NCBI GenBank assembly: GCA_016179745.1
Contig: JACPCP010000018.1
Location: forward strand, 9,258-73,257
Length of the DNA stretch: 64,000 nucleotides
From: Candidatus Omnitrophota bacterium
GTDB taxonomy: Bacteria > Omnitrophota > Omnitrophia > Omnitrophales > JACQLI01
Direction: 5' to 3'
The notes under the pieces were generated by a model. The model was not told the DNA's origin. It made no database searches and saw only the letters and a program-made list of their open reading frames with translations. Shown piece after piece: positions 2,157-54,300 of the stretch. The first letter of the stretch is position 1. Every line of letters starts with the position of its first letter. The position numbers and the translations under genes were made by a program.

Positions 2157-2513
2157 ATGAATTCCGAGATTCGAATGCAGATCGTCCGGATGGCCCACGA
2201 ACGAGGGATGAAAGCTTCAGAGGTCGCCCGCCACCTCGCTCTTTACCGCTCTAACCTTTCCCTGATGGATTCGGGGAAGCGTTCCGTCTCTTTAAGAACA
2301 CTCACCCGCATCGCTGATTTTTTGGGCTGCAGCCCCTCTGACCTGATCGTGGTGCGTTCCGCCAAAGAAGGGCCCCTCTTCCGGAGAATGAGAACCCGTG
2401 AAATTTTGAAGCGAAAGGAAGAAGCCTGCCGGGACGGAGAGGATAAAAGCTGGGTGCATCACGTCCTTTTGAACTGGCAGCGCCACACCCGTTTGGCCCG
2501 GCGGATCCAATGA
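2157..2513 (+). CDS. XRE/Cro-C1 family helix-turn-helix protein
   Basis: MKASEVARHLALYRSNLSLMDSGKRSVSLRTLTRIADFLGCSPSDL is a classic HTH_XRE core. Its stop overlaps the next start (ATGA). Confidence 0.7.
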   Translation: MNSEIRMQIVRMAHERGMKASEVARHLALYRSNLSLMDSGKRSVSLRTLTRIADFLGCSPSDLIVVRSAKEGPLFRRMRTREILKRKEEACRDGEDKSWVHHVLLNWQRHTRLARRIQ

Positions 2514-3028
2514 AACGAAAACCCCTCCTCGATCCTTACCTTAAGGTGATTAAACAATTCAATCGTCTCGGGGTCCGTTACGTGGTCGTTGGAATGAGCG
2601 GAATCAATTATTACGCCAGAGATCCCCGCCAGACCTTTGGGACACTTGATTTCGACCTCTTTTTGGAGCCGACCCTGACCAATGTGAAAAAGGCAATTCC
2701 GGCGCTTAAGAGGCTTGGGTATCACGTCGCCGGCGAGAGAGAAGAAGTTTTGGAAGAAGAGCTGAAAGGAATTGTCCGGATCCGTCAGACATTGACGGCC
2801 ACAACTGCCTACGGGGAGATGATCGAACTCCTTCTCGAAATCTCGGGATTTCCCTTCACCGAGCTGGCGAGGGACGCCGCCACTTTTACGGTCGAGGGGG
2901 TCGGGGTGCGGGTCGGGAGCCTTGAAAAACTTCTCCGTTCTAAAAAATTAGCGGGTCGTCCTAAAGATGCCGCCTTCCTCAAACGGTATGAAGCCCTCCT
3001 GGAAGAGGAAGGGATCGAAGAGGAGTAA
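2510..3028 (+). CDS. Nucleotidyltransferase-fold protein (putative toxin partner of the HTH)
   Basis: VVGMSGINYYARDPRQTFGTLDFDLFL fits the G[SG]-x(9-13)-DxD minimal nucleotidyltransferase pattern. The C-terminal LAGRPKDAAFL motif is typical of small TA-type nucleotidyltransferases. Confidence 0.5.
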   Translation: MKRKPLLDPYLKVIKQFNRLGVRYVVVGMSGINYYARDPRQTFGTLDFDLFLEPTLTNVKKAIPALKRLGYHVAGEREEVLEEELKGIVRIRQTLTATTAYGEMIELLLEISGFPFTELARDAATFTVEGVGVRVGSLEKLLRSKKLAGRPKDAAFLKRYEALLEEEGIEEE

Positions 3029-4415: not shown

Positions 4416-4465
4416 AAAGGCGGGATGCGGCCCCGGAGAGGCTGCCCCGGCCGGGATTAGGCGGA
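4416..4465. repeat. 50-nt direct repeat, copy B (contains stop and last two codons of giant ORF 1)
   Basis: Matches 3080-3129 at 48 of 50 positions. Bases 4457-4465 (ttaggcgga) are the Ser-Ala-stop of the giant ORF on the minus strand. Confidence 0.9.
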
Positions 4466-13400: not shown

Positions 13401-15949
13401 CGGCCGCCCCGTTTTTGAGCCCGGCCGTTTTGAAGAAGGAGGATCGTTGCATCGTCTCTCAGGCGCCCCTCCTTGCGGAGCTCATCGACGATTTCCCTTA
13501 CATATCTTGTGTTTTCGCCCGTATTGGTTGCCTTGAGCTCAGGAATTATGTTTTCCGCACCGACGCCGGCTTTTAACATTTGGTCGGCAAAAAATTCTGC
13601 TTCAGGCACCTCAGTCTCAACGCCTTGTTTTAAAAGAGTGAAGGGGCGATACCACTCAGGCCGCTTTACAGGGCCCCGGCCGCTCGGGACAATAATGACA
13701 TCAGGGTTTTTGTCCTGCGCCTTCTTTGCGATCTTTGCAGCACCCTCGGCCGCCTCCCGATAACTTGAACCGAAAACGATGACAAGATCAAAAGGCCCTT
13801 CCTGAATCCAGCTTTCTCCTTCAAGAGGTTTCCACTTGTCGGTTTTCACGTCATAGACTTCCCTGGCCGCAAGAAAGTCAAAGAGGACCTGGGCGTTTTC
13901 GTCTAGGGCTTCTCTCTGTTCTGTTGCGGGCCCGGTTTGAGTAAAGTGACGGAGTTCGGAGCGGGAGAGGGGGAGTGCGACGGGAGCCGGGACAAAGGAT
14001 TCTTGAACCAGCCGGCTGGTTCCAATGGCAAAGCCCAGGGGTTTCCCGTCCAAAATGGGAATGAGCCGGTCTCCCTCCGGGTTCAATCGGAGCTCAGCCC
14101 TGCGGTCGGTTCCATACAAGCTCTGGCTGAAATTTGATGCGAATTTCCCCGCAGAGATTTTCTTTTCATGGGCCACAGTCGCCAGCCCCTCCAGAACGAC
14201 CCGGAGTTCACTTCGCTGCTTTGCCTGACGGGTGCTTGGGGTCCACATTCGGCCGAACCGAACTTCGGCAGGCTGAAAATGAGCCGCATCATCAAGGTTG
14301 GCCGTATCGAAAGCGGTTTTCTTTTCGCCGAGGAGGGCAGAGACGTAGTCCTCGGAATTGACCTTCTCCGTGATGTGGGGGGTCAGGATGGTGTAAGGAA
14401 TCTGCTTTTCACGAAACGTGTGAGAAAGGCCGGCCGTGTGGAAGCCGCCGGTGATGAGGATGGTAATTCCCCTCATCCTAGCCCTCTCCCCCTTGGGGGG
14501 AGAGGGGAGGGGTGAGGGGGAGGTAAGGATTTTTTCCACCATCGTCTCTTCACGCTGTTTGGCGAGTTCGTAAAACCGGAGGGCCTCCCCGAAGATCGAT
14601 TCCAGCGTGTCGGAGTTGGAGGGAACCAGCTTCCTTTTTCCAAGCGGCGTTCTCTCGTGGAGCGCCTCCAGTTCTACGAGAAAACGAATCAGCGGCCGCT
14701 CGTCCGGATTTTCGGTTTGGACTTTGGCGTAATCTTTTGGCGTGAGCTCCAAATCAAACAATCTTTCATAAAGCCTTTCCTTATGGACGAGCCCGACAAA
14801 CTTTTTGTCCTCTGCCTCACCGGAGACGGCGGACATGATTTTGTCAAAAAGCCTTTCGATTTCTTCAAAGAGCCTCCCGGCCTCGAGTTCACTCTGGAGA
14901 ATGGCGGCTTCGAGGTAGCGGGTGAAATCGGGATACTGCTCGAAGGCAAACCCTTTTTCGAGCGTGGCCCCGACAAGGCGTTCGGCGAGATAGCGGGGGA
15001 GATCGTTTCTCCGGAAGCCCGGGTCATAAACCATCCCTGATTGATAAGGAGAGAAGGAGAGATTTTCAAAACCTTCGACGAGGTCCCGATCGAGACCGAA
15101 GCTCTTTAGGGAACCCACGAGATTTTGCCGGTCCGCCTGCACTTTTTCGGGGTTGAGCTTCGCCTCGATTTCCTGCAGGCGGAGGAGCCGGATCATCTGG
15201 GGCCAATCGAGCTGGCTTTCAAAGTAGCGGATGTCGATGCCGAGGATCGACCGGGCCGCCCGCTCCAATTCCAGCGCATAGGAGAGGAGCTCCATCTGGC
15301 CCGAGTCAAAGGCCTCTCTTGAGCGGAGGAGTTTACGGGCCTCCTTTTCAAGAAGCAGGGTTTCAAGACGGTCGAGAGAGCCCCGGAGGCCCTTTGTGAA
15401 TTGGGCGGTGGCGGGCCGCTGGCGCATCACATATTGAAAGCTGGTGAGGTTCCTCTGGTAAAGCGCCGGGTCTTCGATTCCGTAAGCGGGGATGTCCCTT
15501 GTCGACTCGACCAGGAAAAGCTCGGCGCCGGTGAGCTCGCCCTTTTCGACGAGTTTCTCGGCGACACGCACGTTCAGGCGGTTGTCTTCAAAAAATCGGA
15601 AGTAATCGGGATTTAGCTTCTCGCCCGCACCTTCGATGAACATCGAATCAATGCCGTATTTCTCGTCGAGGAACTTCAGCAGGGCGTAGATTTTTTTCTG
15701 AGTTTCGGGATGAGAGTGGACGCTTTGAATATGAATGAGAGGAGGCGCTGAACCCTTTTGGTGATCCGGGATAAAGGCCTCTTCGATTTTCGCCAGCTCA
15801 GAGGGAATCCCCAGAGGAACGAAGGAAGAAACCATCGGAAGGCCCTCCGGCTGGGCCAATACCACAGGCGAAGGGATCAGCAGGGAGGCGAAGAAACAGA
15901 CCGCCACCGAGCCCGCTACAAACTTTTCACATAGCTTAAGTAACCGCAT
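4457..15949 (-). CDS. Giant modular secreted/membrane-associated protein 1 (3830 aa), punctuated by RSEAR motifs
   Basis: Uninterrupted ORF from ATG 15947-15949 to TAA 4457-4459. It has an N-terminal signal-like segment (VAVCFFASLLIPSPVVLAQP), internal TM segments, coiled-coil regions and a DUF218 module. It ends in ...IWRSA. Confidence 0.8.
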   Translation of the reverse strand: MRLLKLCEKFVAGSVAVCFFASLLIPSPVVLAQPEGLPMVSSFVPLGIPSELAKIEEAFIPDHQKGSAPPLIHIQSVHSHPETQKKIYALLKFLDEKYGIDSMFIEGAGEKLNPDYFRFFEDNRLNVRVAEKLVEKGELTGAELFLVESTRDIPAYGIEDPALYQRNLTSFQYVMRQRPATAQFTKGLRGSLDRLETLLLEKEARKLLRSREAFDSGQMELLSYALELERAARSILGIDIRYFESQLDWPQMIRLLRLQEIEAKLNPEKVQADRQNLVGSLKSFGLDRDLVEGFENLSFSPYQSGMVYDPGFRRNDLPRYLAERLVGATLEKGFAFEQYPDFTRYLEAAILQSELEAGRLFEEIERLFDKIMSAVSGEAEDKKFVGLVHKERLYERLFDLELTPKDYAKVQTENPDERPLIRFLVELEALHERTPLGKRKLVPSNSDTLESIFGEALRFYELAKQREETMVEKILTSPSPLPSPPKGERARMRGITILITGGFHTAGLSHTFREKQIPYTILTPHITEKVNSEDYVSALLGEKKTAFDTANLDDAAHFQPAEVRFGRMWTPSTRQAKQRSELRVVLEGLATVAHEKKISAGKFASNFSQSLYGTDRRAELRLNPEGDRLIPILDGKPLGFAIGTSRLVQESFVPAPVALPLSRSELRHFTQTGPATEQREALDENAQVLFDFLAAREVYDVKTDKWKPLEGESWIQEGPFDLVIVFGSSYREAAEGAAKIAKKAQDKNPDVIIVPSGRGPVKRPEWYRPFTLLKQGVETEVPEAEFFADQMLKAGVGAENIIPELKATNTGENTRYVREIVDELRKEGRLRDDATILLLQNGRAQKRGGRSLVKQFNEGRSLSKIGIRKVVSLSPFRLTASSLNQATAILEIQKGIDEIRRFPGYAEQGFMDPIQVPEEVSSAIASLQTDFPQLFPDRSEARATESEEALTALKEEVLPKIDQAIALAPRESLELSQKLAELKERSEEAARLLESGDATRALVVLEELLDSIFLTKPLVSSQRSPDELLDEIGQIESSATEARNQTDEALRSEARATAIVPVDFIEQQAWRTFMDKMSELGFPINKLLSDAEAQNGASGVNWENLPNTLREIRKKHGNFPEFGKELGRSVPDAESPSIKKAILSAAKAYFRKANALVQMAREVPTNQRIEEVAKYWLREGMLEEETDGLLASQFPEATKEIRKHAIGLGKLAVEWEGYIRNAIDDAKQSEGPFPGITTFRDRIFTAMKGSGDENRLIVITGQAILEMIADNAKKEFTQEGADAASLALAEVNQKIAKLGISTSLDTLTGDLGEGPVLRSEARSQDLTSQLEKHANALSVLLDETLLTFEAKEVFSAILNPGGFQLEKTIRNPETGEYQTKTSVLKGKDGLTLWSVLTALVITRNTRAAEPGLTDDQIESRRNELELELRSGLRENALPLIEQLNKFHSEKPRQSADESVLESIKEGDLLFGKDRSFGGDYYLHVYLGKINNKTHLFLRYSGSAMLTFETLSNIDFDPREKDMQLYGPFPGEISQWPTDLRRSEARNLEDDTLTTQKGDSQRVPFARRFFDAMPRLKPELKRNWIVFFIPLFLLLTSTPFLPYRGGYRTPPVRIAEEQAASQFKFLAKRNPAEWDDRQGVLFDVEDVNDLGSFGKFQEPSFYFELLRLAAVRSKLRLEAQLQRVGPDPLFEGLNDSGELLELLSRPDQIIEERVRGVRHDTYRLVLLHNLELIEALVRAGSNKLKTTQQWKWLLEMLKDGHLLFDTDTDEFYSLRQVSLGQDQKPAKTVEALLKAVNTGVIDPSTPGGQKKITDQIRHNLESHGIFRVVKGAKPAWTPTLASRSEARAGVRVFRIDSSIELTEPEAKRKQPEIDGWLHQYAKLGGNQKFDKLASFLREVHSKEQVNKSFLASRVRPVLGYDEPRLNSIVLGLVQDIWLTGTGVERPKKARDQLVDYIAHATRVLLTRDFVVHLVEEALDGNTGAKEELVGWSFLISAGFIDTELVDKILERVTPDNSIEVRNRASEVMEQFIHASVSSTLRPDVLLDYLTRLKDLEGPFWRFEHPISVLEVAITRNPDLSTDARITKFVRELRNQEGATRFETQLNNLLEKLKSRSEARMSTIQKVLLTATAAVLCGAGCIASKRTSETLQQILNKPSPQSTVVATEQKAGPRHEPIPPDDAVKRDLMNRLFDLYDRIQRQKQRLRNSSPALEGEEFLLDGPITLIFEVVRLVPNLDGRDAEALKKELEKMEKALGELENDVDKIVSEENKKKARRKLDRLKKKMEGLSDDLDLDVEIIDEGRRISVSVPKGISEVEQEMERLRRQLFGEIPEAEEEVEGGELVVMPELEKEKLTPRPIEAPRPEEEPLPEDLKKEFKALELVAEEGKRVVEKKQASGKTTEKGLKPQEPVELLEPPLGEEQVVREKPEPTEKAVPSQEKPQEITVESRQPPDNKKEELLRRARDLKQRLVHLSEKEKREPAPPELAPEEETPAVSPATIPTEVTVTLTRVIEEIIEKEVDLPGIEKDMEELEKAIEELESRYRKLPQPEREKLIRWVLDRLERDGKGPGVRIVNEEEVVREVSIKDIVDEIRRILQEEKPKPGPLRLTPLPKTPPEKSAPKEAQPLDKQDLMERALRLSDRIQSNRDKLRKQLSPLEDQEQLREEEAQDLPLILELLKLVPELGGGDAEKLAAELNQLDTELAEIARAIDEFLAEEDPFEAERKLDRLQKKTDEVRLRITRLVVNLGGEVPFVLPEEIAKIKDELERLRQELEARKRGEEVPWEKSTRPSGQTPATPFFEIPSFVFNGIGYFFIFAVALVAAILIVTSQRVWDFLYWDVYGRIKDAFVRTVFWVKEQFEGFLYWISKSYRPRVIGEIVTFYSPDAPGIPYSSSETADYLSLQDGRIRSIYGGLSFLEKMTNSLTQQGLGLSFFDEMRREASAIKSAYESVFYQIDALLEENGLLLTESAFRRLVNSNDDRSDELRRLFGLQKSEAYSLLGSPVPAFLKALTNRLEELNRLTDEFERKFEAALPSFRDAEIRRAKSNSLWQLSLAEIAKSDSWDTKYERLLIEAELNLGAFASGLNEAQAKISPVRENMGEWRALQWGALSRLALLQRRLRGTHPELSDQLKPIIDHLSSPRSEARAAESKTSRVRFEKRADGSRVVTLKDVTLTAPASPSTNLSWKLRALRFPVTGSTDSDSLTLFSSLGDFANQDRIGAALPVDIIHLKDLSVGLPQDKKTFTGVLQASLEKQGRPVPAIQASRTGSDVKIHFDSIQIPVPPDKPEALTRALRAFGVPEETLNKVRAQFKEVETLATVIANALPRSEARQQKPGKEVQPLTRFYAQSLLLIDWVRRIVQAMQESRKKGGILPSEPLIPMDLFDPVEREAALLAAQGIGQRELMDQLLHPKPDTKSFRLIQKALKALGIKLGAEFDLQRDLPQKSEALKTVRKLSESLSKKDLPESRSELRDEGPLAVESAGLLTSPEQLEKMIGQSAGVVRLESPAGKIFVGKTRPFVKPRGAALILPGLNQLALQIPAGFFPEGWSASNALSLVINIANVTEGIEIFDPRINDELPELAHAMILALRENEARNLGIQEQIDEVRPSPKTPFGAQLVKGENRPARSAVFLEGVPTVEETVARLSPALLLGGNVHVTLVIPYGVPADPVRLESLRQEIGKILGSLGGSKKVEILQPIQPGPDGVAQLISEMSDQYEKWAAAQPGAYIEPEFAINVPGALRSELGIDEALQKIRGKKPIVFIERFSGLLEKSRAALLAAKHSQDALPANLLRGFRQEGRFVIVEKENLDQFVPADQYERAFKALLQIWRSA
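6530..9595 (-). other. Module of giant ORF 1: Met plus hydrophobic anchor, E/K-rich coiled coils with an internal ~110-aa duplication, then a second TM segment
   Basis: The module starts MSTIQKVLLTATAAVLCGAGCIASK immediately after RSEAR. It contains the repeated unit ...DRIQ..R..LR...LVP.L.G.DAE.L...RKLDRL.KK (about 9061-9415 and about 7730-8080). A TM segment GIGYFFIFAVALVAAILIV follows. Confidence 0.6.
13139..13948 (-). other. DUF218 (YdcF/ElyC-like) module of giant ORF 1
   Basis: DLVIVFGSS...IIVPSGRG...EAEFFADQMLKAGVGAENIIPELKATNTGENTRYV follows the DUF218 signature order. The module is bounded by RSELR (13949) and RSEAR (13124). Confidence 0.6.
14360..15949 (-). other. Signal peptide plus TraB/GumN/Tiki-like N-terminal domain (paralogous to the N-terminus of giant ORF 2)
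   Basis: IHIQSVHSHPE...YGIDSMFIEGAGEKLNP...YGIEDPALY...ILITGGFHTAG (GGFH at 14438-14449) is colinear with the same motifs in giant ORF 2. The fold assignment is tentative. Confidence 0.4.
14469..14520. repeat. Palindromic element family A, copy 2 (in frame in giant ORF 1)
   Basis: Sequence is cccctcatcctagccctctccccc ttg gggggagagggg aggggtgaggggg. It encodes SPSPLPSPPKGERARMRG. This stretch is absent at the homologous point of giant ORF 2 (...KSQTAIVLAGGFH). Confidence 0.8.
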
Positions 15950-16188: not shown

Positions 16189-16743
16189 GTGAGCCAGAAA
16201 GGAGTTACGATTTGGTTTACCGGGCTGCCAAGCTCGGGGAAGTCCACCATTGCCCGGGTGCTTGAGCGGCGCTTCCGCCAGGCAGGGCTCAAGGTCGAAC
16301 TTTTGGATGGGGATGTGGTCCGGACGAATTTGAGCAAGGGTCTCGGCTTCTCCAAGGAAGACCGGGACGCCAATATCAAGAGGATTGGGTTTGTTTGTCA
16401 TCTTCTCACCCGGAATGACGTGATCGCCATTGCGGCGGCCATTTCCCCTTATCGGGAAGTCCGGGATTACAATCGCCGTCTCATCGGGAATTTTGTGGAA
16501 GTTTACGTGAAGTGCTCGATCGACGAATGCGAGAAGCGGGACGTGAAGGGGCTTTTCAAAAAGGCCCGGGCCGGCGAGATCACGGGCTTCACCGGCGTCG
16601 ACGACCCCTATGAAGAACCTCTCCATCCCGAGGTCGTCTGCGACACGGAAAAGGAATCCGCCGACCAGTCCGCCGAGAAGGTGATTAGGAAGTTGGAGGA
16701 ATTGGGGTATCTTAGCGAAGCGTCGTCACACTCGTCATTCTGA
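16189..16743 (+). CDS. cysC: Adenylylsulfate (APS) kinase
   Basis: GTG start preceded by aaggagg. VTIWFTGLPSSGKSTIA P-loop and LDGDVVRTNLSKGLGFSKEDRDANI are hallmark CysC motifs. Confidence 0.9.
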   Translation: MSQKGVTIWFTGLPSSGKSTIARVLERRFRQAGLKVELLDGDVVRTNLSKGLGFSKEDRDANIKRIGFVCHLLTRNDVIAIAAAISPYREVRDYNRRLIGNFVEVYVKCSIDECEKRDVKGLFKKARAGEITGFTGVDDPYEEPLHPEVVCDTEKESADQSAEKVIRKLEELGYLSEASSHSSF

Positions 16744-16811
16744 GGCCTCCGAAGGAGGCCGAAGAATCTCAACTCTGAGATCCTTCGGCCGCTACGCGGC
16801 CTCAGGATGAC
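16734..16811. mobile_element. MITE-like nested-palindrome element (family C, gtcatyctgag termini), copy 1
   Basis: The termini gtcattctgaggcc / ggcctcaggatgac are inverted, with an inner gaagaatctc / gagatccttc pair. The cysC stop codon (16741-16743) lies inside the element. Confidence 0.7.
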
Positions 16812-29756: not shown

Positions 29757-30343
29757 AGAGACAGAACTGGCATTGGGACATTAACCTCTCCTATGGGAAG
29801 ATCAAAGAAATTTTGAAGCGTGAAGATGATCCCCGTTTCCCGAGATTGGCAGGGGCCCTCCTTTCCCGTGTTCCGGAGCCCGCCGAGGTCTTTGGGCTCA
29901 TTTCTCCAGCCGCCTTTTGCCGGCGCTACCGGGCGATCGAGAGAGAAATCCTGTCCGACGAATGGACAAGAGAGAAGGCCGCCTTTTGGAAGGCCACCTG
30001 CCTCCGACTCTCAAGAGAGCTTCGGGAACGGGGTGAGAAAATCAGAAAACCGGGAAAAATCAAATTGGACGATTTTGACCGAACGCTCGTCTCGAAAATA
30101 AAGCAGTGCCGGAAAAACGCCCTCTTGTCTCAAAAAGAATTGGCCCAATGGATGGGCCTGAGCCAACAATACATCTCAGGAGTCGAAACGGGGCGGGAAA
30201 GGGTCACGATCGATTTCCTTAAAAGATTGGCGGGAATGACCCATCAACCGATCGAAATCGTCTTTCAAACCAATTATTCTCCGGAAATTAGGCGGAGCGG
30301 GCGAGGGCGGCCCGGATCTCGGGGTCGAGGGCGAGGCGGTTAA
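29753..30343 (+). CDS. Protein with C-terminal XRE-type HTH (possible cognate antitoxin/regulator)
   Basis: LLSQKELAQWMGLSQQYISGVETGRERVTIDFLKRLA is an HTH_XRE core. Its start overlaps the AbiEii stop. Its 3' end overlaps the giant ORF 2 3' end convergently by 56 nt. Confidence 0.55.
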   Translation: MKRQNWHWDINLSYGKIKEILKREDDPRFPRLAGALLSRVPEPAEVFGLISPAAFCRRYRAIEREILSDEWTREKAAFWKATCLRLSRELRERGEKIRKPGKIKLDDFDRTLVSKIKQCRKNALLSQKELAQWMGLSQQYISGVETGRERVTIDFLKRLAGMTHQPIEIVFQTNYSPEIRRSGRGRPGSRGRGRGG

Positions 30344-33300
30344 AAAATTCCGCAATCTGAGCGAGCCCCCTCGGAGTGACCCGCCGGAATGCCAGGGGAT
30401 TCCTGGGGTCCTTTTCGAGCATCTCCCAGAGAAATTTCGAGCGGTGAACGGCTTCAATCAGCCGGATAAAATCAGGTACCCTCAAACCGGAAAGACCGAT
30501 GACGGAGGGTTCGGCGAAGACGCCAAACCCGTGGAAATTACCGGCGTTTGTCAAGTCCAGGGGGGTGACTGGCGACAGGAAGAAGCCAGCGTCTTTAAAA
30601 TCAGGAGACGTTCGGCTGATTCGACCCGGGTTCAAAGGATCATTTTCTCGATACGGCAGCGGAACTACGCCGGGGGCAGCGGCCGCAATCTTGCTAAAAG
30701 GGATTTGCGCCTCTTTGCCGCCCGCAAAGGCAATACCGACCCTCACCTCTGACCGCACAGCCTCACGCACAAAATTCTGAATTTCTTGAATCGCCTCATG
30801 GTCTGCAAGGTGTTTCGATAGGGCGAGGTCCAGAACCGTAGCGCTTGAGGGCGGGATTCTGAAGCTTGGATCAAAGATGCTGCTCCGGGCCGCCCGATTC
30901 ACGAGCGAGGAAAAAAGAACAGGATTGCGCTGGAGTCCCAAGAAGATCGCCCGGGCGTTTTCAGAGAAACGGGCCCGCTCTCCAAATTTCAGGGCCTCTG
31001 CCGTCGAGACCCGCTCCGTGGCGGCGCCGAGGATGAGAATCCTCGAGGCAACCCCCCGGAAAAGATCTTTAATCCTGACGGGCTCGATGACGGCCGGGTC
31101 TATTTTTAGAGTTGCCGCTAGGATAGCCGCCGCCTCTTCCGCCGCTTGACCAAACCTTTCCGAATCAAGCCACTTGAGCATTTCCTCGGGCGTTTCCTGT
31201 TTCATCATTTCAGCCGCAAGATTCACAAGGGACTTCCGAACCTGGTCCCGCACGATTTCTTTTCGGTTCTTCGATTGTTTTTGCAGCCGGTCGACGAACC
31301 GGTCAAAATCCCCGTTCTCCGTGTAAAGCCGGACCATTTCCTCTGCCGTCAAATCCGGGAGGAATATCTGAAACTCTCCAGCCGCTTCCCTTCTTATGGG
31401 AGCGGCGTCTCGCACCTCCGCCCGCTCCCTGGGCGCCTCCGTTTGGAAAGCCTCAGACTTGGCACTTTCAGAAATGGGAGGGTGACCGGGCACTCCTCCC
31501 AATGCAGTTTCAATCGCGGCACGGAGCGCGTTGCGTTCATTTTTTTCCCACTCACCTAAATCAGTGCGACGGGTCTCCCGATGGAGTCTCTTGAGAGTCC
31601 GTGAAAGGAGATCCCGGCCTTCCTTCTCGCCGTAGGCCTGATACAGGCCGGCGAAGATATCTGAGTAATCGGAAGGGTAAGTAAGGATAAGGTTTCGCAG
31701 TCTAATCAAGATAAATATGAAACGCCTGCCGGAGACCGGCAGTCCCACATCGACAACCCGCACCGTCTTGGAAGAGGCTTTGAGATTGAGGGAGTTAGGA
31801 TCGCGGATTGTCCACCGCCCCCTTGTCTTTTTAAGAATCTGGAAGAGCCGATGCGAGGATTCCCGGGTAACACGACTGGCCTCCTCCTCGATTCTCTCTG
31901 GTTCCGTTTCCTTAACTTGATCCAGATAGCTACTTAGAGAAAGGTAATTCGGTTCATCAATCAATTGTTCAGTCCACATCCCGTACCTTGGACTCCAGGT
32001 CCCCAGGGTCTCGGCGCTGGGGTCCTCCGGTTCATAGAGTTCAATGAGGTGGTCGACCTCCGTTCCCGCATCCCTTTTCCGGGGGAACCAGTTCAGGGCC
32101 ACGGAATAAGGCGTTTCCCCATTTGTCACGTGGATATCCAATCGAAAAACACGCTTTTTCCCGCCGGCATTTAGAAATCGGATTGAGACTTCACGAACTT
32201 CCTGGAGAGGAATTACAACGCCGAACAGGGCCCAAAGGGTTGACTGGATGAGATAGGATCGTCGAAGCGCTTGCTCGACCCTGCTACGAAATTGCTTCTC
32301 AAGCGCCGGGCTTTTATCAGATGAAAGTTCTCCGACAGGAGTGAATTGAAAGGCCGCCTTCGTCTGCGGAGAGTCCCAGAAACTGTTCAGTTGGCTTCGA
32401 AAATAGGTTAAGACCTCCTCCGCCCTCTCACTAATTTCTTCAGGCATTCCGTAACGCCGTCTCCCGTAGAGCTTCCAATAGGTCAGAGCAGACCGAAGTT
32501 TAAGATAAAGGAGGTGACTACCTTCGATCCGGGGATCGATCGAAATGGTTCGGACCTGCTCTAGGAGAGCCATTATTTCCTGGGGGGCGGATGCGTCCCT
32601 CAGTTTTTGAACCAGTTCCTGATTTCGTATCTCAGCACGGGGTTTGGAGTTTTCTTCAAGAAATGCGATCACGCCCGCCAGGGTTGCCACTGAAGGAGAG
32701 AGCGGACCGATAAAACGAGGGGCGGTTTCCTTCTTAAGTCTGTCAATAAGCTCCCGAAGCCAGCCCCTGAGCGGGGAACGGAAGTTCCGAGCGCTGACAT
32801 AAGCCTCCATCGTGATAAGAAACATGGCAATATCTTTAACTTCTCTTTCGAGGCCGCGTTCCCAAATCCAACGGAATACCTCGTCATCTTTTATCGTATC
32901 CTTATATTTTTCGATGTCCCGATGTTGGGGGGTGGATGCAATGGCCCAGTCCGTGAATTGGAAGCCGCCGCCCTTACGGAAGTGGATTTCCTCCTCCCCG
33001 AGGTCACGGTGAAATACGCCTTTATGGTGGAAGAGCTCAAGCGCCCGAGCGATTCTTAGAACGTCACTTAAAACATCTTTTTCATCCCGTCCGTGGCGTG
33101 GACGAAATCGGGGGTTCATCCGGTGAGCCGCCGTTTCGCCTTCAATCATCTCCTCAATCAAGTAGGTCTGGCCGGTCTTGGGAGAGGGACGTTCTGTGTC
33201 CCACCCGGTTCGTGCGGCCGCTTTTTGGATCTGGGCAGCTTCTGGATCCGTCAGGACGCCGGAACCGACAAGGCGGGGCAGATGGGGGGCCAGTTCTTCA

Positions 33301-45300: not shown

Positions 45301-48300
45301 CGTCTCCGGTTAAGCTCCTCGGCGATCTCCCTCAGACCCTTAAGAGTTTCATCGGTGCCGTCGAGTTCCTCTTCAATATTCAAATAGAGACGATAAAGGA
45401 ACGCACCAAACGCCGCACGTTCTTTACGAGTTCCTGAGTCTACCCGTTTGCCGGAGAGCGTTTCTTGGATACCTCTCATTTCCTGAATAATCTTTGCAAG
45501 CTTGAGCCGCTTTCTCCAGTCCTCTTTCTCTTCTTCGAGGAGGTCGCTTTCAATTCGGTCCGCCAACTTTTTTAGATCATCTATTGCGAATTTTTCCTTT
45601 CTCTGAATTGTGGCAAAAGCCGGACCCCCCTTCTCAAGGACCAACACACGGAAATAGCGTTGGATATCGCGCAGGATTTCGTTTGGCTTCCTCTGCCGCA
45701 CCTCGGAGCGGGGGGGAGATTCGAGTGTTTCGGCCTGATCGAGGATCTCTTTGATGGGCTGGGCGAGGGAGGGCTGGGAGCGTGCAAGCCGATCGGACAA
45801 AAACGGGATATAAAGCCAGAAGACTTTCCTCTCGGCTCTGAATTTAGCAAGATGGGTTCGGATTTCATTTACCTGACCGAGAAACTTTTCTTTCTCTTTG
45901 AACTTGGAGGCGCCTCGAAGGCGTTCTTCGATCAGGGCCTCAAGCATTGACTCAAATTCGATTTCGGCCTCGGTCCACTTTTCATAATCCACGGCCTCTT
46001 GGACAATCGAATCGGCTTCGAAGCCGCTTAGAGAGAGTTTTTGGTGAGTTTTGACATAGAGCTGACGCAGGGTCTCCAAATCAGTGCGGCTTGCCGCGAG
46101 GGCGTTAACGGCTTCACGGTTCAACTGTTGAATGAATTCAAATTTTTGGATCACCCGCTTTTCCCAATCGGTGTATTGTCTCCCCGAGCGAGCAAACCGG
46201 ATCGCCAAAGGTCCCTCTGTGTAGCTTTCCGAATCGTCGCGCCAGCGTTCGATCGTGATTGGAACGAGGGTTCGTTCTCGAGGGTCATAAGGCCCCGTTG
46301 CGCTCAGGAAGATATCAATGAACTTGTCAAACTCATCCTGAGGATGGGCTGTGCTCTTGACCTCCTCCAAAAGTTCGCTGAGATACCCAAAGAAATCAGT
46401 GATTGCTTGGATTTTTACTGAAGGCGGGGGAATCAAGATAGGGACCTCCTGCTCAGCGGGGGAAACCGGGGAGGCTGGTTCCGGCGGTAAAGGTGCCACG
46501 GTTTGGTTGATGATCCAGGGACTGGGAAGCCTTTTGGGTCGGCGGAAGAGGCGGGCCACGGGGACGGTCAGCGCTGTGAAAAGTTCGAGAAGAATAAAGC
46601 CGGCGAATCCTGCAAGCAAAAGAACCCCGTTTCTGAGAAAACTCATGAGCGCAAAGGGATCCCCATAGCGGCTTGTCTCGAGCATCATGACCACTTCGCC
46701 CTGAGGGGGTTGCGTAATCTCTGAGGATTTACCCTGAGGAATCTGCGTAATCGCCGGGGCTCCAGCGTCATGAAGTGAGGTCTCTTTAGGTTCGCCTCCA
46801 GGCGTTTCAACTCCGCTTCCTGGTTGACCCCGGCCCGAATGATCAGGCGGCATTGAATCTCCGGCCTTCTCCCGCAGCTCCCTCGCCGTATCCAACATCC
46901 ATTCCGGCGTTCCCTCTCCTTCAGTGAGCATCTGATTTATCTCTTCTTCAAGCTTGTTAACCGCGTCTTCGATTATCTTAATAAGCTCAGTAAGAGAAAT
47001 CACAATCTCAACTTTCCTTTCCGTAGATGTCCGCTCGCGAAGCTCGCGAAGCTGGCGAAGCTGGTCAGGTTCCCGCTTAGGGCGTCGCACGACTTCCCTC
47101 TTGGGTAGTTTTTTCATGAGCTCTTCCAGGCGATTTAGCTTTTCTCTAAGCTGGTCCAGCTGTTTTAATAACCGATCGATCGTGTTATCGTCCAAATCGA
47201 GAATCTTTAGCTCCTCCAGCACACTGTCCAGCACGTCGTCCATCCCTTCTAGGTTCCACAACGCACCGATGGCGGGGTACAACTTCGAGCGCAATTCCAA
47301 GATGCGCCGTTGTAACTCCTTCATCTCCCGGAAAAGCCGTTCCTCCTGGGACTCGGCGGGCCGTTTTTCTCCCAAAATATCAAGCTGAGAATATTTAGGC
47401 GCGCCTTCTGCACCGGAGGGAGCATCGGAGGGATTGGGGGCTGTTACCTGAGATAGCATCTTTTGAATTTCATCAAACGGATTCTTGGGGGGAGTATCTG
47501 GAAAACGAATAAAGGGACCGTCAGGTCCTTTCAAATCCAGTTTTTTCCGCTGAAACACAGGCCAATCAACCTTTTTGCCGGATTGGTAGATAGGCCTTAA
47601 TGCAGGCTCAAGTAGAGTTAACAGCTCCTGGGCTTCCCGGAGGAGGGCACGGATATTTTCTTCCCCCCAAGAGCGTTCTCTATTTTCATAACTTTCTTTT
47701 AGGCTCGCCATGATCCGATCCAGCTCTTTCGCAAGTGGGACGAGGCGGCTGCGGTCGTTCGATGGAATCCAGGGGAAGAAACGAGACAACCTATGTGCCA
47801 CATCCTTCGCAAACGCGAGGACTACTTCCGGGCTCGCCTCAGGTTCTTCCGGTGTTAGCGGGGGAGGCTCCTCTATGCGTTTCTCACCCGGCCAGTCACC
47901 TCCGGGCAGCACCTCCGGCGTTTGATCCGGCGGTTTCAGGGTGCTGACTGGCTGCGGCTCCTCTTTGGATTGGGAAGACGGGGGCGCGACACGTGTTCCG
48001 GAGGCCCCTTTTCCTGCCGACGCTTGTGCTCTAGACGTCAGGTCTTTGCGAGCTTGGGGCGCCGGTTGGTGCGGCTCTGATTTTTCCGGGGCCGTTCCCT
48101 CAATAGCCGGGGGCTTTTGGACCTTTTCCTGCTTAAGGTGTCTCGTGGCTAACCGGAGGTCCCGGCGGGAGGTAATCTTGCCTTCTTGCACTTGGCGGAG
48201 AAGCGATTTTTTTTCCTCTTTCGTGGTTTTTTTCGCTTCTTGGATTTTGTTTTCCAGTTGTTGGAGCTTACGGAGGTACCGGTGCATCTGGTGGGCTGCT

Positions 48301-51300
48301 TTCCGGATGGCGGAATCCGGGTCATTGAGCAGAACCTCGATGTCTTTCGGTTCCCTAGCGTTGGCAACCTGGTTAAACTTATCCTGGTGAGTCTCTTCCG
48401 GCGAACCTCGGACGGGATTCAAAGAACTTCCCAGAATAAGAGCAGCAAGGCCGACGCCGACCACTTTTTGCCAAACCGAAGGGCCCGAGATCGCCTTGCC
48501 CCCGCCCAAAAATCGGTCCGGGCCTTGCAATGACGAGGGTTGTTCCATGGCCATCTCAGTGCCGGCAGGGGAACCGGAAATCGCCGTATTATGCGCAAAA
48601 ATGCCGTTGCCGATGAAGTTGTGGGTGCCCTGGACTTCGATATCGTAGACATGCTCCAAGCCCACATAGTCGATCGAGACAATCCGGTCCCAGAGGAGAT
48701 CAGAAGCCGGGTTGGAAAAGGGGATAGGCAACACTACTCCCAACGTTGCGTTGCCTGTTCCCTTTTCCTGCGGAGCGGCTTGGGCGTAGGCAGAAGGGAG
48801 GCTGAGTAGTCCTCTCCAGGCAGTTGTGGTATACTTTGCCGCATGAAACGACGAAACGGTTTCAACCGCATTGTAATTGATCCGGCCGTTCGCTTCGGGA
48901 AGCCTTGTATCAAGGGGACCCGAATTACGGTTGGAGACGTCTTGAATCTCCTGGCGGCGGGCTACACGGTGGACGAAATCCCCGAGCAGTATCCTGGGGT
49001 CACCAAGCAGGACGTTTCCCAGGCGATCGAATTTGCGAGTGATCTGGCTGAGCATCCCGCCAAAGTAACAAACCTCACATAGCGCGTCTCTTTCTCTGTG
49101 AAGATTCTTGCCGACCACTGTGTCCACACCGATGTGGTTCTGGCTTTGAGAGAGGCGGGGTTCGAGGTCATCCGCGTCTTTGAAAAGGGCATGGCCGGCG
49201 CCCCCGATAAGGATATTTATGAATACGCCCAGCGGCATTCCATGGCCGTCCTCAGCTACGACTTCGACTTTGGAAATGTGGCCCGATTCGATATCCTCCG
49301 TTCGCACGGGGTTGTCCTGGTCTATGTTGAAAGGATGACGAGATCCAAGATTATCGAGCGCACGGTCGGTTTCTTTGAAGAGAACCGCCGGCGGAATCTC
49401 TCCGGAAAACTCCATCTGATTGAGCCGCACGGGACCGGCACCTGGCCGGGGTAAACCCGCCGGCACCCCGATCTCATTGCCGACCCTTAACTCCTTCACC
49501 TTGATCCAGGCCCCAACATTTCTCGACAAGCCCGGAGTCAGGTGATACACTTTTTCCAGTGACGGAAAGGAATTACGCATGAGGAAGAACGGGAACAAAG
49601 CACGCAGCCTTAGAAAAACAAAACCGCTGGTCCCCACAAAGCCTGACGTTGGCCACTTCTCAAAATTTGCCTCCCGGGCGGGAGGAATTTCCTTGCCGGA
49701 CAGGTTCCGGGCCGCCGTCGCCTTTGATTCGGAGAAAAGACCCCGTTGGTTTCTCTTCGATATGTTTGCTTTTTGGGAGCTCCTTTGCCGGATTGATAAC
49801 GTACTCTCCAAAACTTTGTCTGACAAAGAGTACTGTTCAACAAATCCCGTCGGTGGCCTCATTGACGAGATCGAAGGCCGCTGGCCGCTCAAAGAGGAGT
49901 CCAAGTCGGCCGTCCGCCGCGAATACGAACGGGCACTGCGGGACATAGCCGCTGGCCGATTCTCCCGTCTCACTGTGTGATCTATCAGTTTATCTTGACT
50001 CGCCAGGCGGAGGAGGACCTGGCGAGATTTCCCGATTCCCTGTCGCACCCGATTAGAAAAAAGCTTGCTTATTTTCTCTCGGCCTCCGACCCCATGAAAT
50101 TTGCCAAGCTCCTTGTGAACCTGCCCCCTGCGACCCACCGGTTCCGCTTTGGAGACATTCGGATGAAGTTTTTCCGGGACAAGAATATTTTCTACATCAC
50201 GGGAATTGACCACCGAGGTAAAGTCTACCGATAGCGGCACCCCGATCTCATCGCCAACCCTCAACTCCTTCACCTTGATCCAGTTTCCTTCTTTTGCCTT
50301 TTGACTTTTGCCTTTTTCCGCCACACTGCGTGACGGATCCGCCAAGCTGTGTGGCGGAGACTTGACGAGATACGGATGATTCGCCGTGGTCTTGATCGAT
50401 CTCCCGGAGGCGGTCGTCAAGCGGTAGACAGGCTTCACTCCCATATCAAGCAGGGCATTAATTCTCCGTGGCTCAATCTTCCCGGTTTCTTCATTTAAGG
50501 AAAGAACCCGGTCTCCGGGCCTGACTTCGGTAATGGGGATTTCTTCAAGCCTTTCGTTATCCTGACGTCCCCGACGCGTGTCATCCTGAGTCCCGCGAAG
50601 CGGGGCGAAGGATCTCAAACCCTGAGATTCTTCGCCCGCCAAAAGGCGTGGCGGGCTCAGAATGACGGGGTTGGTGTTGCGTATCACCGGCAGTCTCGTA
50701 TCCCCCGTGACGCAAAGGCCTTCCGGATCCTCGGAGCTTCTCACCTCGGTTCTCTGAAGCTCTTCGAGCGAAGCAGACCGCGCCTCGGAGCGGCGGCGCG
50801 CAATTTCTTCACCGAATATCCGGCCAATCTCTTTTTCTATCAGACCGGGCAAGCTGACATTTGCAGGGACCCCGTTGCGAAGGAAAGGATGACCGTAGAA
50901 GCTGCCTCCGAGCGGGACGGCCTCAATCCGATCGTAGTCATCCGTGCCTCGCACACGCCTGATGGCGAAATTACGTATACGGGTGTCTGGCTCGGCTTCA
51001 TAGGCTTGCAGCATCAACAGTTCTATTTTTGTTGGGTCTCCTACGATTGCCTGGGCAATCTCCAGAGCCAATTTTTGCAGTTCAGTTTTCTGGGGTTGAG
51101 TGGCGGGCTCTTCTTTGAAGAAAACCCACCCTTCGAAGATGCGGGTAATTAGGTTAGCGTCGACCGGAACCTCCTCTTCGCCTTCATCCTTTTTCAGAAC
51201 AACTTTTTCCTCGCCGGTTTTCACCCCGTTTAATTCTTCAAAAGCCTTGCGGAGCTGGCCGGCAAGTCCGGAATCCGTGACCGTGAATTTAAACCCGCCC

Positions 51301-54300
51301 TCTTCGTTCTTTTGAGACATTACGGCCCCGCTCTGATAGGCCAACAACACTTCTTGGGCCGCGAGGTCAAGGAGATGCCCCTCTGGATCGCTCACCTCCG
51401 GCCGTTTTCCTCTCAGGAATTTCAAAAATGGGATAACCGGATCGACTTGGGCGCGCTGCAGAGTTCCGGCTGAAGGGGCCGGAGGAATGTCGGGTGCTTG
51501 GGTCGGGACCTTAAAGTCGGTTTTGATAATTTTGTGATAAAAACGGGGGCCCGTAGTGGATACGGTTGGCTTACTTAACGTGATATCCTGCCAATGTAAA
51601 TCAGAGACTTCAGCAGTCCTGGGGTTGACCTTCCATGTCACACGCACCGCAGGGACCGGCGTTTCCTGATAAGTAGCTTTGGATGGTACTTCGGTCAGGA
51701 ATGTGCTCCATAGCTTATCTGCAAGGGCTTTCAGAACATGATGACTTGAGCCCCAGAACGCCTTACTGAGGCGGAATAACTCATACACAGCCAAAGCCTC
51801 AGTTTCTTCTAATTGAATCTCGAGGCCATTCTTTTTCAGGGTCACCTTGCCGGTTCCGTCCACAGAAATAGTGCCCGGCACCTCTCTGAGGATCCCTTTC
51901 CCCAGCTCATCTTGCCCCTGGATTTCAAACGTAAGTAGATCGTCGCCAATTGTTACGCTGACATCCCTGCCACGGTACTTCATCGTAGTAGCGAACCCCC
52001 GCACCTCGGCGCGGAGCATGGACTTGGCATTTGCCTTTAAAAGTTGGGAATTTGCCGCTGTCATTATTGCCTCGGTAGATGGGGAAAACACTCTGTTCCC
52101 TTTTGTAATTTCGTAGACTACATGAACGCTTCCGGCATCCTGACCCTCATCATCTAGAGCGACGATAAACTGTCCGTCAAAGCGCCAATAGGTCCCCGAA
52201 TTGTCCTCGAGCAGATCTCCTTTTGTAAGGATCTGAAGGATACCTCTACCTGATTGCTGAGCTTCGGCCATCTCTGAATCAAACGCCACTGGGCGTTCTT
52301 TCCTCTCTTGCTTTATTAAAGCTTCTCTTCGTGCATCTCCGTTTCGATCCTCAAACCGGCTCCCCCGAAAACCCTTCTCATAAGTTTTCCCCAAAACCTC
52401 CTGCGTCTTCCGCACCTCGGCGCGGGCGGAGACGACGGGTTTTTCTGGAGAAAAGGGGACAGAGCCCCTTAATTGTTCAAGGACGGCGGAGGCGACGGCA
52501 CTTTCCGGAGACTGGTCCCGCAATTCCGCCCGGATCGATTCGGGAAGCGAGGCCGCAATGCCCCCGATTTTGGCCCGGAGTTCATTTCTAATCATCCCTT
52601 CCGGCGGAGACTTTGTTTCCGGGCTGGCCGATTTTTGAGTGACTTGCTCGATCGACTTCGCAAGAGCGCGGACTTCCGGCCGTCCCGCCAGGAGACCCGC
52701 CGGAACTCTCCCCGCAAGTTCCTCAAGCGTTTCTCGAACAGCGCCGGGTTTGGCCAGCACTTCAAATTCGGATCGTAGCGGGCGAGAAGGAAGGGCTCTG
52801 GTTCGGAGGAAATCCAGGATTTCGGCTCGGGGTCGTGAGGTTGGAAAAAGCGAAGCGCCGGCCAGGTGCATGAGGGCGGCGGGTTTTGGTTGAGGGGTTT
52901 CGCCCAAGAGGCGGGAGACGTTTTCGACCGTGAATTCTTTTCGGTCCGCCAATTGCCGGAGGCCGGAGACGAAGGAATTAAATTGGATTTGAAATTTTCC
53001 CCAGAGGGAATTGACGGCCTCCTCGGCGGAGCTCTCGAGGGCCTTTTCCAGCTCTTTTTGGATTTCCTCCCTCGATCTAGAGGCGCCGTCGGCGCCGAAT
53101 TTGCCGTGGTAAATTTTTAAAAGGAGATCAATGTAACGAGTGTATTCGCCGGCCTCACCGGTGCGGCCTTCGTCGGCGAGCTTGCGAATCACCTCGTCAC
53201 GCCAGAGTTTGAGATTCTGTTTGAAGTCCGGCTGATTGAGCCCTGCGACGAGTCGCTCCGTCGAATGTCTCACGAAGGCGTCGTAAAAGGTCGTCTTGAG
53301 ATATCGCTTGTAGGAAAGATCGCCTTTCATCACGGCCTCGTAACGCTCTTTTCCTTCGAGCGAACGGATCCTGGGCGTGACGACGGCGTAAGAATAGCCC
53401 GCTTCCTTCAAACTTTTCTCAAACCCTGTTGAGTGAAACCCTCCGGCAAGGACAATCGCTGTTTGGCTTTTCGTTTTCTTGAGAAGTTTTTCGAGATTTT
53501 CGTGAAACACCCGGTCCCTTTCGAGGACAATCCGGTAAAATTCAAGCGCCGGCCGGACCGCTTCCCGGTTAGAAGGATCACCCAGGAGTTCGAGGTAGGA
53601 ATCCGGGGCTTTTTGATAGGCGTCGAGCCGGTCTCGATCGAGTTCGAGACGGACGAGATCCTTGAGGAAGCGGAGTTTTTGGTATTTGAGGGCGAGCGAG
53701 CGCTCCTCCGGTGTTTTGATGAGGGACTGGTCAGCCTCTGAGAGAAAGGTCTTTAGCTCGTCAAAAAGTTTTGTGCCCCTGATCGTCGAAAGGGTTTCGA
53801 CTTGGCCGATCAAGGCTTGCATTTGGGGACTCAATTTGGGTTTGAGACCGAGGGGCCTTCCTGCCTCAACAAGATATTTCAGGAATTCGCCCAAATCCAT
53901 TTGATCGGTGACAAAGGCCTGAGTGCGCCGGTTAAATTCCATCTTGCCCTTCTTGTCGAGCTGGGCGAGGTGTCCTTTTCGGAAATCTTCCGCCAGTCTT
54001 CGGACCTCAATTTCCAACTGCTTTTTGGGCAGAGCGGAACCCTGCTTGAGGGAATGGAGAAGCTGGGCCAAGTGGGGATAGTTGATTTCAGAAGGTGCGG
54101 CGGCCTTCAAGGAGGAGGCCAGGTAATTCAGGAGCTCAAACAAATGGGAGCGTTCATCTCTAAAGGCCTCCACCTTTTCGTGAAAGGTATTCAGATCCGG
54201 CGAAAAAGCCTTCTTCCGTTCCCGATCCAGGCCTGCCTTGATCTCCGCCAATTGCTTGAGAAGTCCGTCTTGATTTTGTGCGGCCCTCAAGTAGGCGAGG

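Follow-up and report, generated by a model that had tools for sequence, protein, structure and literature searches.

Toxin-antitoxin-like gene pairs encoded antisense at the endonuclease site of an intein family from Omnitrophota and neighbouring phyla

How can operons with start and stop codons of their own be lodged within a much longer gene that remains uninterrupted? The question is raised by a giant gene of a Candidatus Omnitrophota bacterium, located in a stretch of 64,000 nucleotides (nt) of contig JACPCP010000018.1 (GCA_016179745.1), hereafter the window, from whose first position all coordinates are counted. The gene is an uninterrupted minus-strand open reading frame (ORF) of 8175 codons that contains an intein; its product is an orphan that matches kinase, HATPase and AAA models only weakly. 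A first-pass annotation had proposed that two toxin-antitoxin modules occupy, in antisense, the position of this intein at which a homing endonuclease would normally sit. Domain matches for one of the gene pairs, and the recurrence of antisense cargo in related inteins, uphold that proposal, and the arrangement is a family-wide property of an intein lineage, not a curiosity of a single locus. Coordinates of the features are collected in Table 1.

The intein comprises residues 1368-2076 of the host protein (709 amino acids, aa) and is matched by the Pfam model Intein_splicing (PF14890, E = 6.2e-22) as well as by the N- and C-terminal intein models TIGR01445 (1.9e-6) and TIGR01443 (4.9e-8). At its N-terminal end it displays CVTGDT, with Cys1 at residue 1368, and the block B motif TxxH within KTTANHPY; at its C-terminal end blocks F and G are present as VYDIEVQGTHNF and GIFAHN, followed by Thr at +1. 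These features predict a class-1, splicing-type intein with intact catalytic residues, and the residues of CVTGDT...AHN and the following T are kept in nearly all related inteins. A Pfam scan of the host-frame translation of the 709 aa returned Intein_splicing plus a weak PT-HINT match only, with no LAGLIDADG, HNH or other endonuclease domain, and the host-frame reading of the cargo DNA matches no domain. Four plus-strand ORFs sit between WIKVKELRVGDEIGVP and the C-terminal blocks of the intein.

Two of these ORFs encode a DUF433 protein and a DUF5615/PIN_10 protein. The genes are co-oriented with 15 nt between them, the pair is kept in 18 other inteins, and by family and layout they are predicted to form a VapBC-like type II toxin-antitoxin pair. 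DUF433-PIN pairs of this type have been documented (PMC3834315, PMC2701414, PMC5499597); a homologous pair from Synechocystis was demonstrated experimentally to be a toxin-antitoxin system (PMC3834315), and PIN_10/COG4634 proteins have been classed as putative toxins with DUF433 partners (PMC5499597). The other two ORFs encode a candidate antitoxin of 133 aa, named AT2, and an 85-aa RelE-like protein whose GTG start overlaps the stop codon of AT2 (GTGTGA). The assignment of the latter to RelE/ParE rests on its cluster, in which 10 of 16 relatives match Pfam ParE_toxin (PF05016, best 2.6e-10) and whose profile matches the solved structures 2khe (4.8e-11), Rv2866 (3g5o, 1.3e-9) and RelE3; the window copy is at most 52% identical to the members of the cluster and retains the invariant Arg, Phe and Tyr positions. 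A search of 1.84 billion representative proteins yielded only 20 relatives of AT2. Wherever it occurs, the AT2 gene lies upstream of a member of this RelE subfamily, a pairing kept in 10 inteins and in the free-standing locus L163, and its upstream position and conserved toxin partner make it a candidate antitoxin. In an exact-sequence look-up, neither the DUF433 nor the AT2 sequence of the window was recorded in an index of 153 billion genes, and close AT2 homologues were recorded only from short contigs with a truncated host ORF. Upstream of the DUF433 gene lies the extended -10-like sequence TGGTATACT, use of which as a promoter would yield a leaderless or near-leaderless mRNA. The WIKVKELRVG(D/N)EIGVP block that precedes the cargo is doubled in the window as a 49-nt direct repeat, whose copies (WIKVKELRVGDEIGVP and WIKVKELRVGNEIGVP) share 94% identity and lie at a distance of 774 nt (258 codons).

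As the first-pass annotation had stated, the giant ORF passes through both cassettes without a stop (0 in 491 antisense codons, 48810-50283). Three genes, those with starts at 48843, 49098 and 49977, share their codon boundaries with the host frame. None of them contains TTA, CTA or TCA, codons that make up 2.04% of the 15,026 codons of the window reference; for the DUF433 gene this absence had been noticed before, and it extends to the two other aligned genes. Chance was assessed by keeping the four protein sequences fixed, redrawing synonymous codons and counting stops in the host frame. Recoding with the codon usage of the window (20,000 trials, 4.0 stops on average) left the entire stretch without a stop with P = 0.014, and recoding with that of the host gene's own flanks did so with P = 0.0025; gene by gene, P was 0.42 for DUF433, 0.18 for DUF5615, 0.22 for the RelE-like gene and 0.86 for the gene starting at 49579. 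The last gene had been described as displaced by one position and as having a notably open antisense stretch. It is indeed out of alignment, with a measured offset of 2, and its open stretch is unremarkable; only dipeptides of C, D, F, H, N or Y followed by Tyr force a stop in that register. The window statistic alone is thus suggestive, not conclusive. Long antisense ORFs, of up to 264 aa, are common in the window.

A protein search with the window intein returned 46 matches, mostly from Candidatus Omnitrophica, several of which align to its 'junk' portion. In locus L001 a protein with a CBM domain carries a related intein with DUF433 and DUF5615 genes in antisense, and in locus L002 a GNAT protein, unrelated to the former hosts, carries one whose antisense strand encodes homologues of AT2 and of the RelE-like protein. 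Neither host ORF is interrupted, and in each case the gene caller reported the host ORF alone. A splicing-block profile, blind to ORF continuity, was then used to scan one genome per GTDB species, and the best 80 of 360 relatives were used. Taken together, the scan loci, L001, L002 and the window provided 82 paired N- and C-terminal blocks, the scan loci belonging to Omnitrophota, Patescibacteria, Elusimicrobia, Planctomycetes, Chlamydiae, one Thermotogae and one Thermoplasmata. The family is spread over Omnitrophota, Patescibacteria and Elusimicrobia, which account for most of the inteins, and over neighbouring phyla. Its cargo site is the canonical endonuclease site, directly after the W.KV.EL..GD.I block. 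The host frame is in register and stop-free between the blocks in 81 of the 82 inteins, and an interruption, which the first-pass annotation had named as counting against a protected frame, was found only in L066.

In L066 (977-3288) the 2 kb between the blocks contain 23 stops and a change of frame, together with a sense-strand ORF of 163 aa for which Pfam gave no match; this locus may represent a decayed copy or else a split arrangement.

Clustering of the cargo regions yielded recurrent ORF families, all of them antisense to the host gene. The four main ones are DUF433-like (19 genes, all codon-aligned), DUF5615-like (18 genes, offset 0 or 2), RelE-like (17 genes, all codon-aligned) and AT2 (10 genes, all at offset 2). 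Smaller ones comprise two other partner families (4 and 2 genes, offset 2), HicA (2 genes, codon-aligned) and three families of two-helix membrane proteins (4, 4 and 2 genes, offset 0 or 2). Pfam matches in further cargo include MazF/PemK (1e-16), HicA (1e-18) with HicB-like partners, DUF5647 and a weak PIN_4. Among 80 non-redundant inteins, 17 carry DUF433-DUF5615, 14 RelE with a partner, three double cassettes and four other toxin-antitoxin-like cargo (MazF, HicAB, PIN and DUF5647, one each); 12 carry a small membrane protein, 13 are mini-inteins and 17 fall into none of these classes. Toxin-antitoxin pairs are therefore present in antisense in about half of the related inteins.

The membrane-protein cargo consists of antisense ORFs of 66-80 aa with two hydrophobic helices, occupying the cargo site of 12 inteins (including L016:3397-3597, L023, L040, L074, L031, L041, L065, L068 and L001:6290-6496), and its substitution pattern is of coding type. 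Pfam returned no matches for these proteins, nor for the AT4 and AT13 partners; the two-helix proteins could be membrane toxins or something else. Of the otherwise unassigned inteins, 10 were scanned, and seven hold an in-frame NYN domain (PF01936, 1e-16 to 1e-25) at the endonuclease position (L067, L075, L055, L077, L071, L050 and L081, from Patescibacteria and one Thermoplasmata); two gave weak LPD3 matches.

Selection to keep the host frame open, which the first-pass annotation had suggested and for which the window alone offers modest support (P about 0.01), is established by the family as a whole. When 39 inteins with family cargo were recoded according to local codon usage, the median probability of an open frame was 0.005 and the summed log10 P was at most -78. 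Codon-aligned cargo genes contain no TTA, CTA or TCA in 4051 codons, as against 4.25% of 46,478 flanking host codons. Metagenomic DUF433 genes served as a control: of the 80 nearest relatives, 78 lack these intein blocks on their flanks, and in these the forbidden codons amount to 225 of 6693 (3.4%), only 13 of the 78 genes are free of them, and the aligned antisense frame stays open over a median of 124 nt. In the two relatives borne by inteins, forbidden codons are absent and the antisense open frames exceed 3 kb. For AT2-RelE, the copy in L162 (82% identity) is embedded in an intein with an antisense frame open over the whole contig; that in L163 (60%) is a free-standing operon among ordinary genes, with antisense stops, and that in L164 (71%) is free-standing with a truncated toxin.

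The cargo strand is constrained in a different manner. In pairwise comparisons within every cargo family, divergence increased from the second to the first to the third codon position of the cargo frame (0.35, 0.47 and 0.66 for DUF433), a pattern that was lacking in shadow-ORF clusters from the same regions. This indicates that the cargo genes are under purifying selection at the protein level and that the host frame is constrained just to stay open. Combined, these results identify a long antisense overlap under dual constraint, in which one strand maintains a protein sequence and the other an open frame.

The registers that are used follow from the genetic code. When cargo and host codons are aligned, the only sense codons that create a host stop are TTA and CTA (Leu) and TCA (Ser), all of which can be avoided synonymously, so that any protein can be accommodated. 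At offset 2 only the [CDFHNY]-Tyr dipeptides named above are forbidden. Offset 1 forbids Phe-[IKMNT], of which the AT2 and DUF5615 sets contain 12-14, and it is used by none of the 64 genes of the four main cargo families, in which only offsets 0 and 2 occur. The sense orientation is ruled out by the stop codons that an independent operon must have.

Cargo and splicing blocks behave as separate modules. Locus L005 has two inteins in one gene whose splicing blocks are 93% identical, one with DUF433-DUF5615 and the other with RelE-AT2 as cargo; DNA homology ends at the block edges. L016 presents the same picture. Cargo class agrees between an intein and its nearest scaffold in only 18 of 40 cases, and strict co-divergence of cargo and scaffold was rejected on this ground. 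The toxin stop codon lies 9-24 nt past the W.KV.EL..GD.I block in 24 of 35 inteins; in five the cargo precedes the block. Where cassettes are stacked, the intein sequence next to them occurs once more between the two, namely as the 49-nt repeat in the window, WVKVSELQAGDEIAAP and WVKVSELKLGSEIAAA in L015, and a 54-nt repeat in L042. In L162, the closest relative, a duplicated block likewise lies between cassettes, and the homology of this locus to the window (78% over 981 nt) starts exactly at the outer end of block copy 2; past that end the two sequences differ. These limits imply that a unit composed of block, RelE cassette and block predates the divergence of both genomes, and that the neighbouring DUF433 cassette is variable.

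The reading that we consider probable is that these loci are composite selfish elements, in which a splicing-competent mini-intein offers its cargo site as a platform for toxin-antitoxin cassettes. The cassettes would be transcribed from their own promoters on the strand opposite the host gene, and the ribosome translating the host gene would read their reverse complement into a meaningless loop peptide that protein splicing would discard along with the intein. Antisense orientation alone would allow an operon with its own stops to sit in an uninterrupted host ORF, with selection purging TTA, CTA and TCA from codon-aligned cargo genes. The toxin-antitoxin module may penalise loss of the intein, addiction taking the place of homing, while entanglement with a long host ORF may shelter the cassette from deletions and frameshifts; the two partners would in this manner stabilise each other through addiction and gene entanglement. 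Recombination within the conserved intein blocks would bring in cassettes and exchange them, and such an event may have left the 49-nt duplicated block between the cassettes of the window.

Several observations weigh against this composite-element reading. Every functional step in it is inferred from sequence, and the promoter calls are consensus matches only. Two names given in the first-pass annotation stood in part: RelE/ParE holds through the cluster, and the window ORF by itself has no Pfam or NCBIfam match at E <= 0.01; 'antitoxin' holds for the gene at 49579-49980 by position and conserved pairing, and AT2 belongs to no known family, having no match in Pfam, NCBIfam or a PDB profile search. 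The AlphaFold model of AT2, built on a seven-sequence alignment, is weak (pLDDT 57), with a disordered N-terminal half and a helical C-terminal half. The family survey covers the 80 best-scoring relatives, and a search with 700 aa of spliced flanking sequence for intein-free or cassette-free alleles found no extein homologues. The uncoupling of cargo from scaffold would fit passive passengers as well as mutualism. Finally, a DUF433-DUF5615 cassette lies in antisense (2250-2847, plus strand) within a minus-strand ORF of at least 1283 aa with a signal peptide (L085:1-3849) in which Pfam detects no intein, so that an intein is not strictly required, and embedding of cassettes in ORFs may not be limited to inteins. 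The L085 cassette is bordered by translated palindromic repeats.

The last two of these points lead to the main rival, which we regard as unlikely and which differs from the composite-element reading only in whether the intein benefits. It holds that the cassettes are pure passengers that persist wherever an in-frame, stop-free insertion is tolerated, an intein loop being suitable because it is spliced out, and that the intein gains nothing. Besides the uncoupled cargo and the L085 cassette, it draws support from other in-frame junk within the same intein (the 87-nt palindrome and the hairpin of Table 1) and from the existence of close free-standing relatives. Tolerance alone, however, hardly explains why 21 of 23 sampled Omnitrophota inteins carry cargo, with a single mini-intein among them, or why this cargo consists almost exclusively of addiction-type modules and not of random small genes. 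It is very improbable that the cargo acts as a mobility nuclease, with DUF5615 guided by the DNA-binding DUF433 protein as a homing endonuclease in trans that replaces an in-frame NYN domain. The presence of NYN at the cargo position in seven of the ten otherwise unassigned members would suit this idea, as would the membership of NYN and Mut7-C/PIN_10 groups in one PIN-like superfamily (PMC5499597) and the occurrence of the inteins in many unrelated host proteins, which implies mobility by some route; yet the mRNA interferases RelE, MazF and HicA, whose presence it leaves unexplained, and the small membrane proteins are equally often found at the site, and characterised DUF433-PIN pairs act as toxin-antitoxin systems (PMC3834315).

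We give still less credence to a regulatory device, in which autoregulated antisense transcription, or conditional splicing of an oversized intein, would tune production of the giant protein. The promoter-like sites do face into the host gene, and toxin-antitoxin operons are typically autoregulated (PMC3834315), but nothing specific speaks for such a role, and the occurrence of the same cargo in many unrelated hosts argues against a host-specific one. The reading with the least probability, which is negligible, treats the plus-strand genes as a side effect of the host frame being open, or the openness of that frame as a coincidence of composition. The abundance of long antisense ORFs in the window and the P of 0.86 for the offset gene would be expected under it; it was rejected in view of the Pfam E-values of 1e-24 and 1e-21, the coding substitution signature of the cargo frame that shadow clusters lack, the homologous free-standing operons, and recoding probabilities of 0.014-0.0025 in the window and at most 1e-78 across loci. 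An assembly artefact was likewise rejected, given that the arrangement recurs in dozens of independent assemblies.

In full-text literature searches, no paper was found to describe inteins that contain toxin-antitoxin genes, NYN domains or antisense genes, in agreement with the first-pass annotation, which knew of no description of the arrangement; two preprints on giant genes of Omnitrophota do not mention inteins. The components are known, and the architecture and its generality appear to be new. Homing-endonuclease inteins share with the present ones the class-1 features (Cys1, TxxH, HN and then Thr at +1) and the placement of cargo in the loop between blocks N4 and F. Here, by contrast, the cargo is on the opposite strand, is neither fused to the intein nor an endonuclease, and has its own start, stop and candidate promoter. 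Mini-inteins with filler other than an endonuclease do exist, such as the DnaB intein of Trichodesmium erythraeum with its tandem repeats. That intein too tolerates in its loop an apparently meaningless in-frame polypeptide that is spliced out, as is predicted here; what sets the present filler apart is that its opposite strand encodes functional-looking genes under purifying selection. Fractured genes have reportedly been described by Dassa et al. in 2009, with a free-standing endonuclease gene between the halves of a split intein. They resemble our loci in having an independent gene lodged in an intein locus, but their host ORF is broken and depends on trans-splicing, whereas here it is continuous in 81 of 82 cases, L066 being broken.

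Type II toxin-antitoxin modules are a stabilising cargo of plasmids, genomic islands and integron cassette arrays. The gene families are the same here, as are the antitoxin-first operons with overlapping or adjacent stop and start codons and the modular, exchangeable cassette bounded by repeated sequence; what differs is that the cassette lies wholly inside another ORF and is recoded against antisense stops, and that the element to be stabilised would be the intein. Persistence of inteins is usually seen as a cycle of homing, decay of the endonuclease and loss. Addiction modules at the endonuclease site suggest another strategy of persistence and link two classes of selfish elements that have been studied separately. 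Taking this further, we tentatively put forward, as a possibility and with more doubt than conviction, that a new class of inteins persists and spreads without a homing endonuclease by means of addiction modules. Recombination at its cargo loop would insert, exchange and stack antisense, frame-neutral cassettes, with the duplicated blocks as integron-like junctions, and some toxin-antitoxin lineages would have adapted to live inside ORFs (inteins and linkers of giant proteins), where gene callers do not see them.

The system is also a large natural example of dual coding on opposite strands that obeys a simple and testable rule (no TTA, CTA or TCA in the aligned register), with dozens of independent replicates and free-standing controls at hand. 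It exposes a blind spot of annotation, in that antisense cargo is systematically missed by gene callers; counts of toxin-antitoxin genes and small genes in Omnitrophota and the candidate phyla radiation are therefore probably too low. For biotechnology, it parallels the engineered entanglement of genes for biocontainment, and the inteins appear to tolerate 1.5 kb of arbitrary in-frame insert. The engineered counterpart is OAFI, the insertion of a toxin gene in an alternate frame so that the outer gene limits inactivating mutations (bioRxiv 10.1101/2024.11.07.622342). In both, an inner toxin gene occupies another frame in a tolerant region of an outer gene, but OAFI is synthetic, whereas the present arrangement is natural and widespread, with an intein predicted to dispose of the extra peptide.

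Table 1. Positions of the host gene, intein, antisense cassettes and repeats in the window
Feature	Coordinates	Strand	Evidence or remarks
Host gene, giant ORF	30288..54815	-	ORF list; weak domain matches
Intein, 709 aa	48588..50714	-	Cys1 = 50714-50712; end GIFAHN; +1 Thr codon = 48587-48585
N-terminal splicing domain	50235..50714	-	CVTGDT via TTANHPYLV to WIKVKELRVGDEIGVP; two in-frame insertions
C-terminal splicing domain LLWDRIVSIDYVGLEHVYDIEVQGTHNFIGNGIFAHN	48588..48698	-	TIGR01443 4.9e-8
Block copy 1 WIKVKELRVGDEIGVP	50235..50283	-	Direct repeat; abuts stop codon of RelE-like gene
Block copy 2 WIKVKELRVGNEIGVP	49461..49509	-	Direct repeat; between both cassettes
DUF433 (COG2442, VapB-like antitoxin), 79 aa	48843..49082	+	PF04255 2.1e-24; codon-aligned; TTA/CTA/TCA = 0
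DUF5615/PIN_10 (Mut7-C group PIN-like) putative toxin, 118 aa	49098..49454	+	PF18480 6.5e-21, PF18478 3.4e-8; codon-aligned; TTA/CTA/TCA = 0
Candidate antitoxin AT2, 133 aa	49579..49980	+	No family matches; offset 2 relative to host frame
Putative RelE/ParE-family toxin, 85 aa	49977..50234	+	GTG start; codon-aligned; TTA/CTA/TCA = 0
Promoter-like TCGACA-17-TACACT, TG before -10, 28 nt upstream of AT2 start	49523..49551	+	Consensus match
Extended -10-like TGGTATACT, 7 nt upstream of DUF433 ATG, no -35	48827..48835	+	Read by eye
Palindromic repeat element, 87 nt = 29 codons, in frame in intein N domain	50580..50666	.	Fold
Hairpin, 42 nt, perfect spacing, in frame, loop HPYLV-WIKV	50317..50358	.	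Inverted-repeat search
Inverted repeat, 24-nt arms, upstream of DUF433 promoter-like site	48714..48768	.	Inverted-repeat search

Among the repeats, that at 48714..48768 is possibly an operator or a terminator. The palindromic element in the N-terminal domain belongs to a repeat of about 80-87 nt (GTCATYCTGAG...CTCAGRATGAC; -30 kcal/mol, z -5.6) whose second copy in the window, at 16734-16811, is intergenic. Other low-complexity in-frame inserts occupy the same loops in related inteins.

The insertion sites of the inteins differ. Many related inteins (L024-L081; e.g. L124) share an extein context in which ...KLHVEGQ precedes the intein and TYISGNVGIGTTSP... follows it; this context is part of a repeat motif in large surface proteins of the candidate phyla radiation, and its recurrence suggests a preferred insertion site. 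The site in the window, with SSEDPEGL before and TAISGSPAG after the intein, is not of this kind. Within the host protein, the linker RRSEARSASLEEL..SSEDP recurs at residue 5298, with DNA similarity ending 8 nt before the splice junction; this is only suggestive of a paralogous empty site.

Two giant proteins of the window are punctuated by the pentapeptide R[AS]E[VAIM]R, with 20 copies in the 8175-aa ORF and eight, always RSEAR, in a second giant ORF (4457-15949, minus strand, 3830 aa); shuffling predicts 0.14. It is often placed at apparent domain boundaries, and the DNA word behind it, CCGC[GT]CCGA[GA]G[TC]GCGG, is nearly constant and in part palindromic; the pentapeptide could be a processing motif, a linker motif or a repeat at the DNA level.

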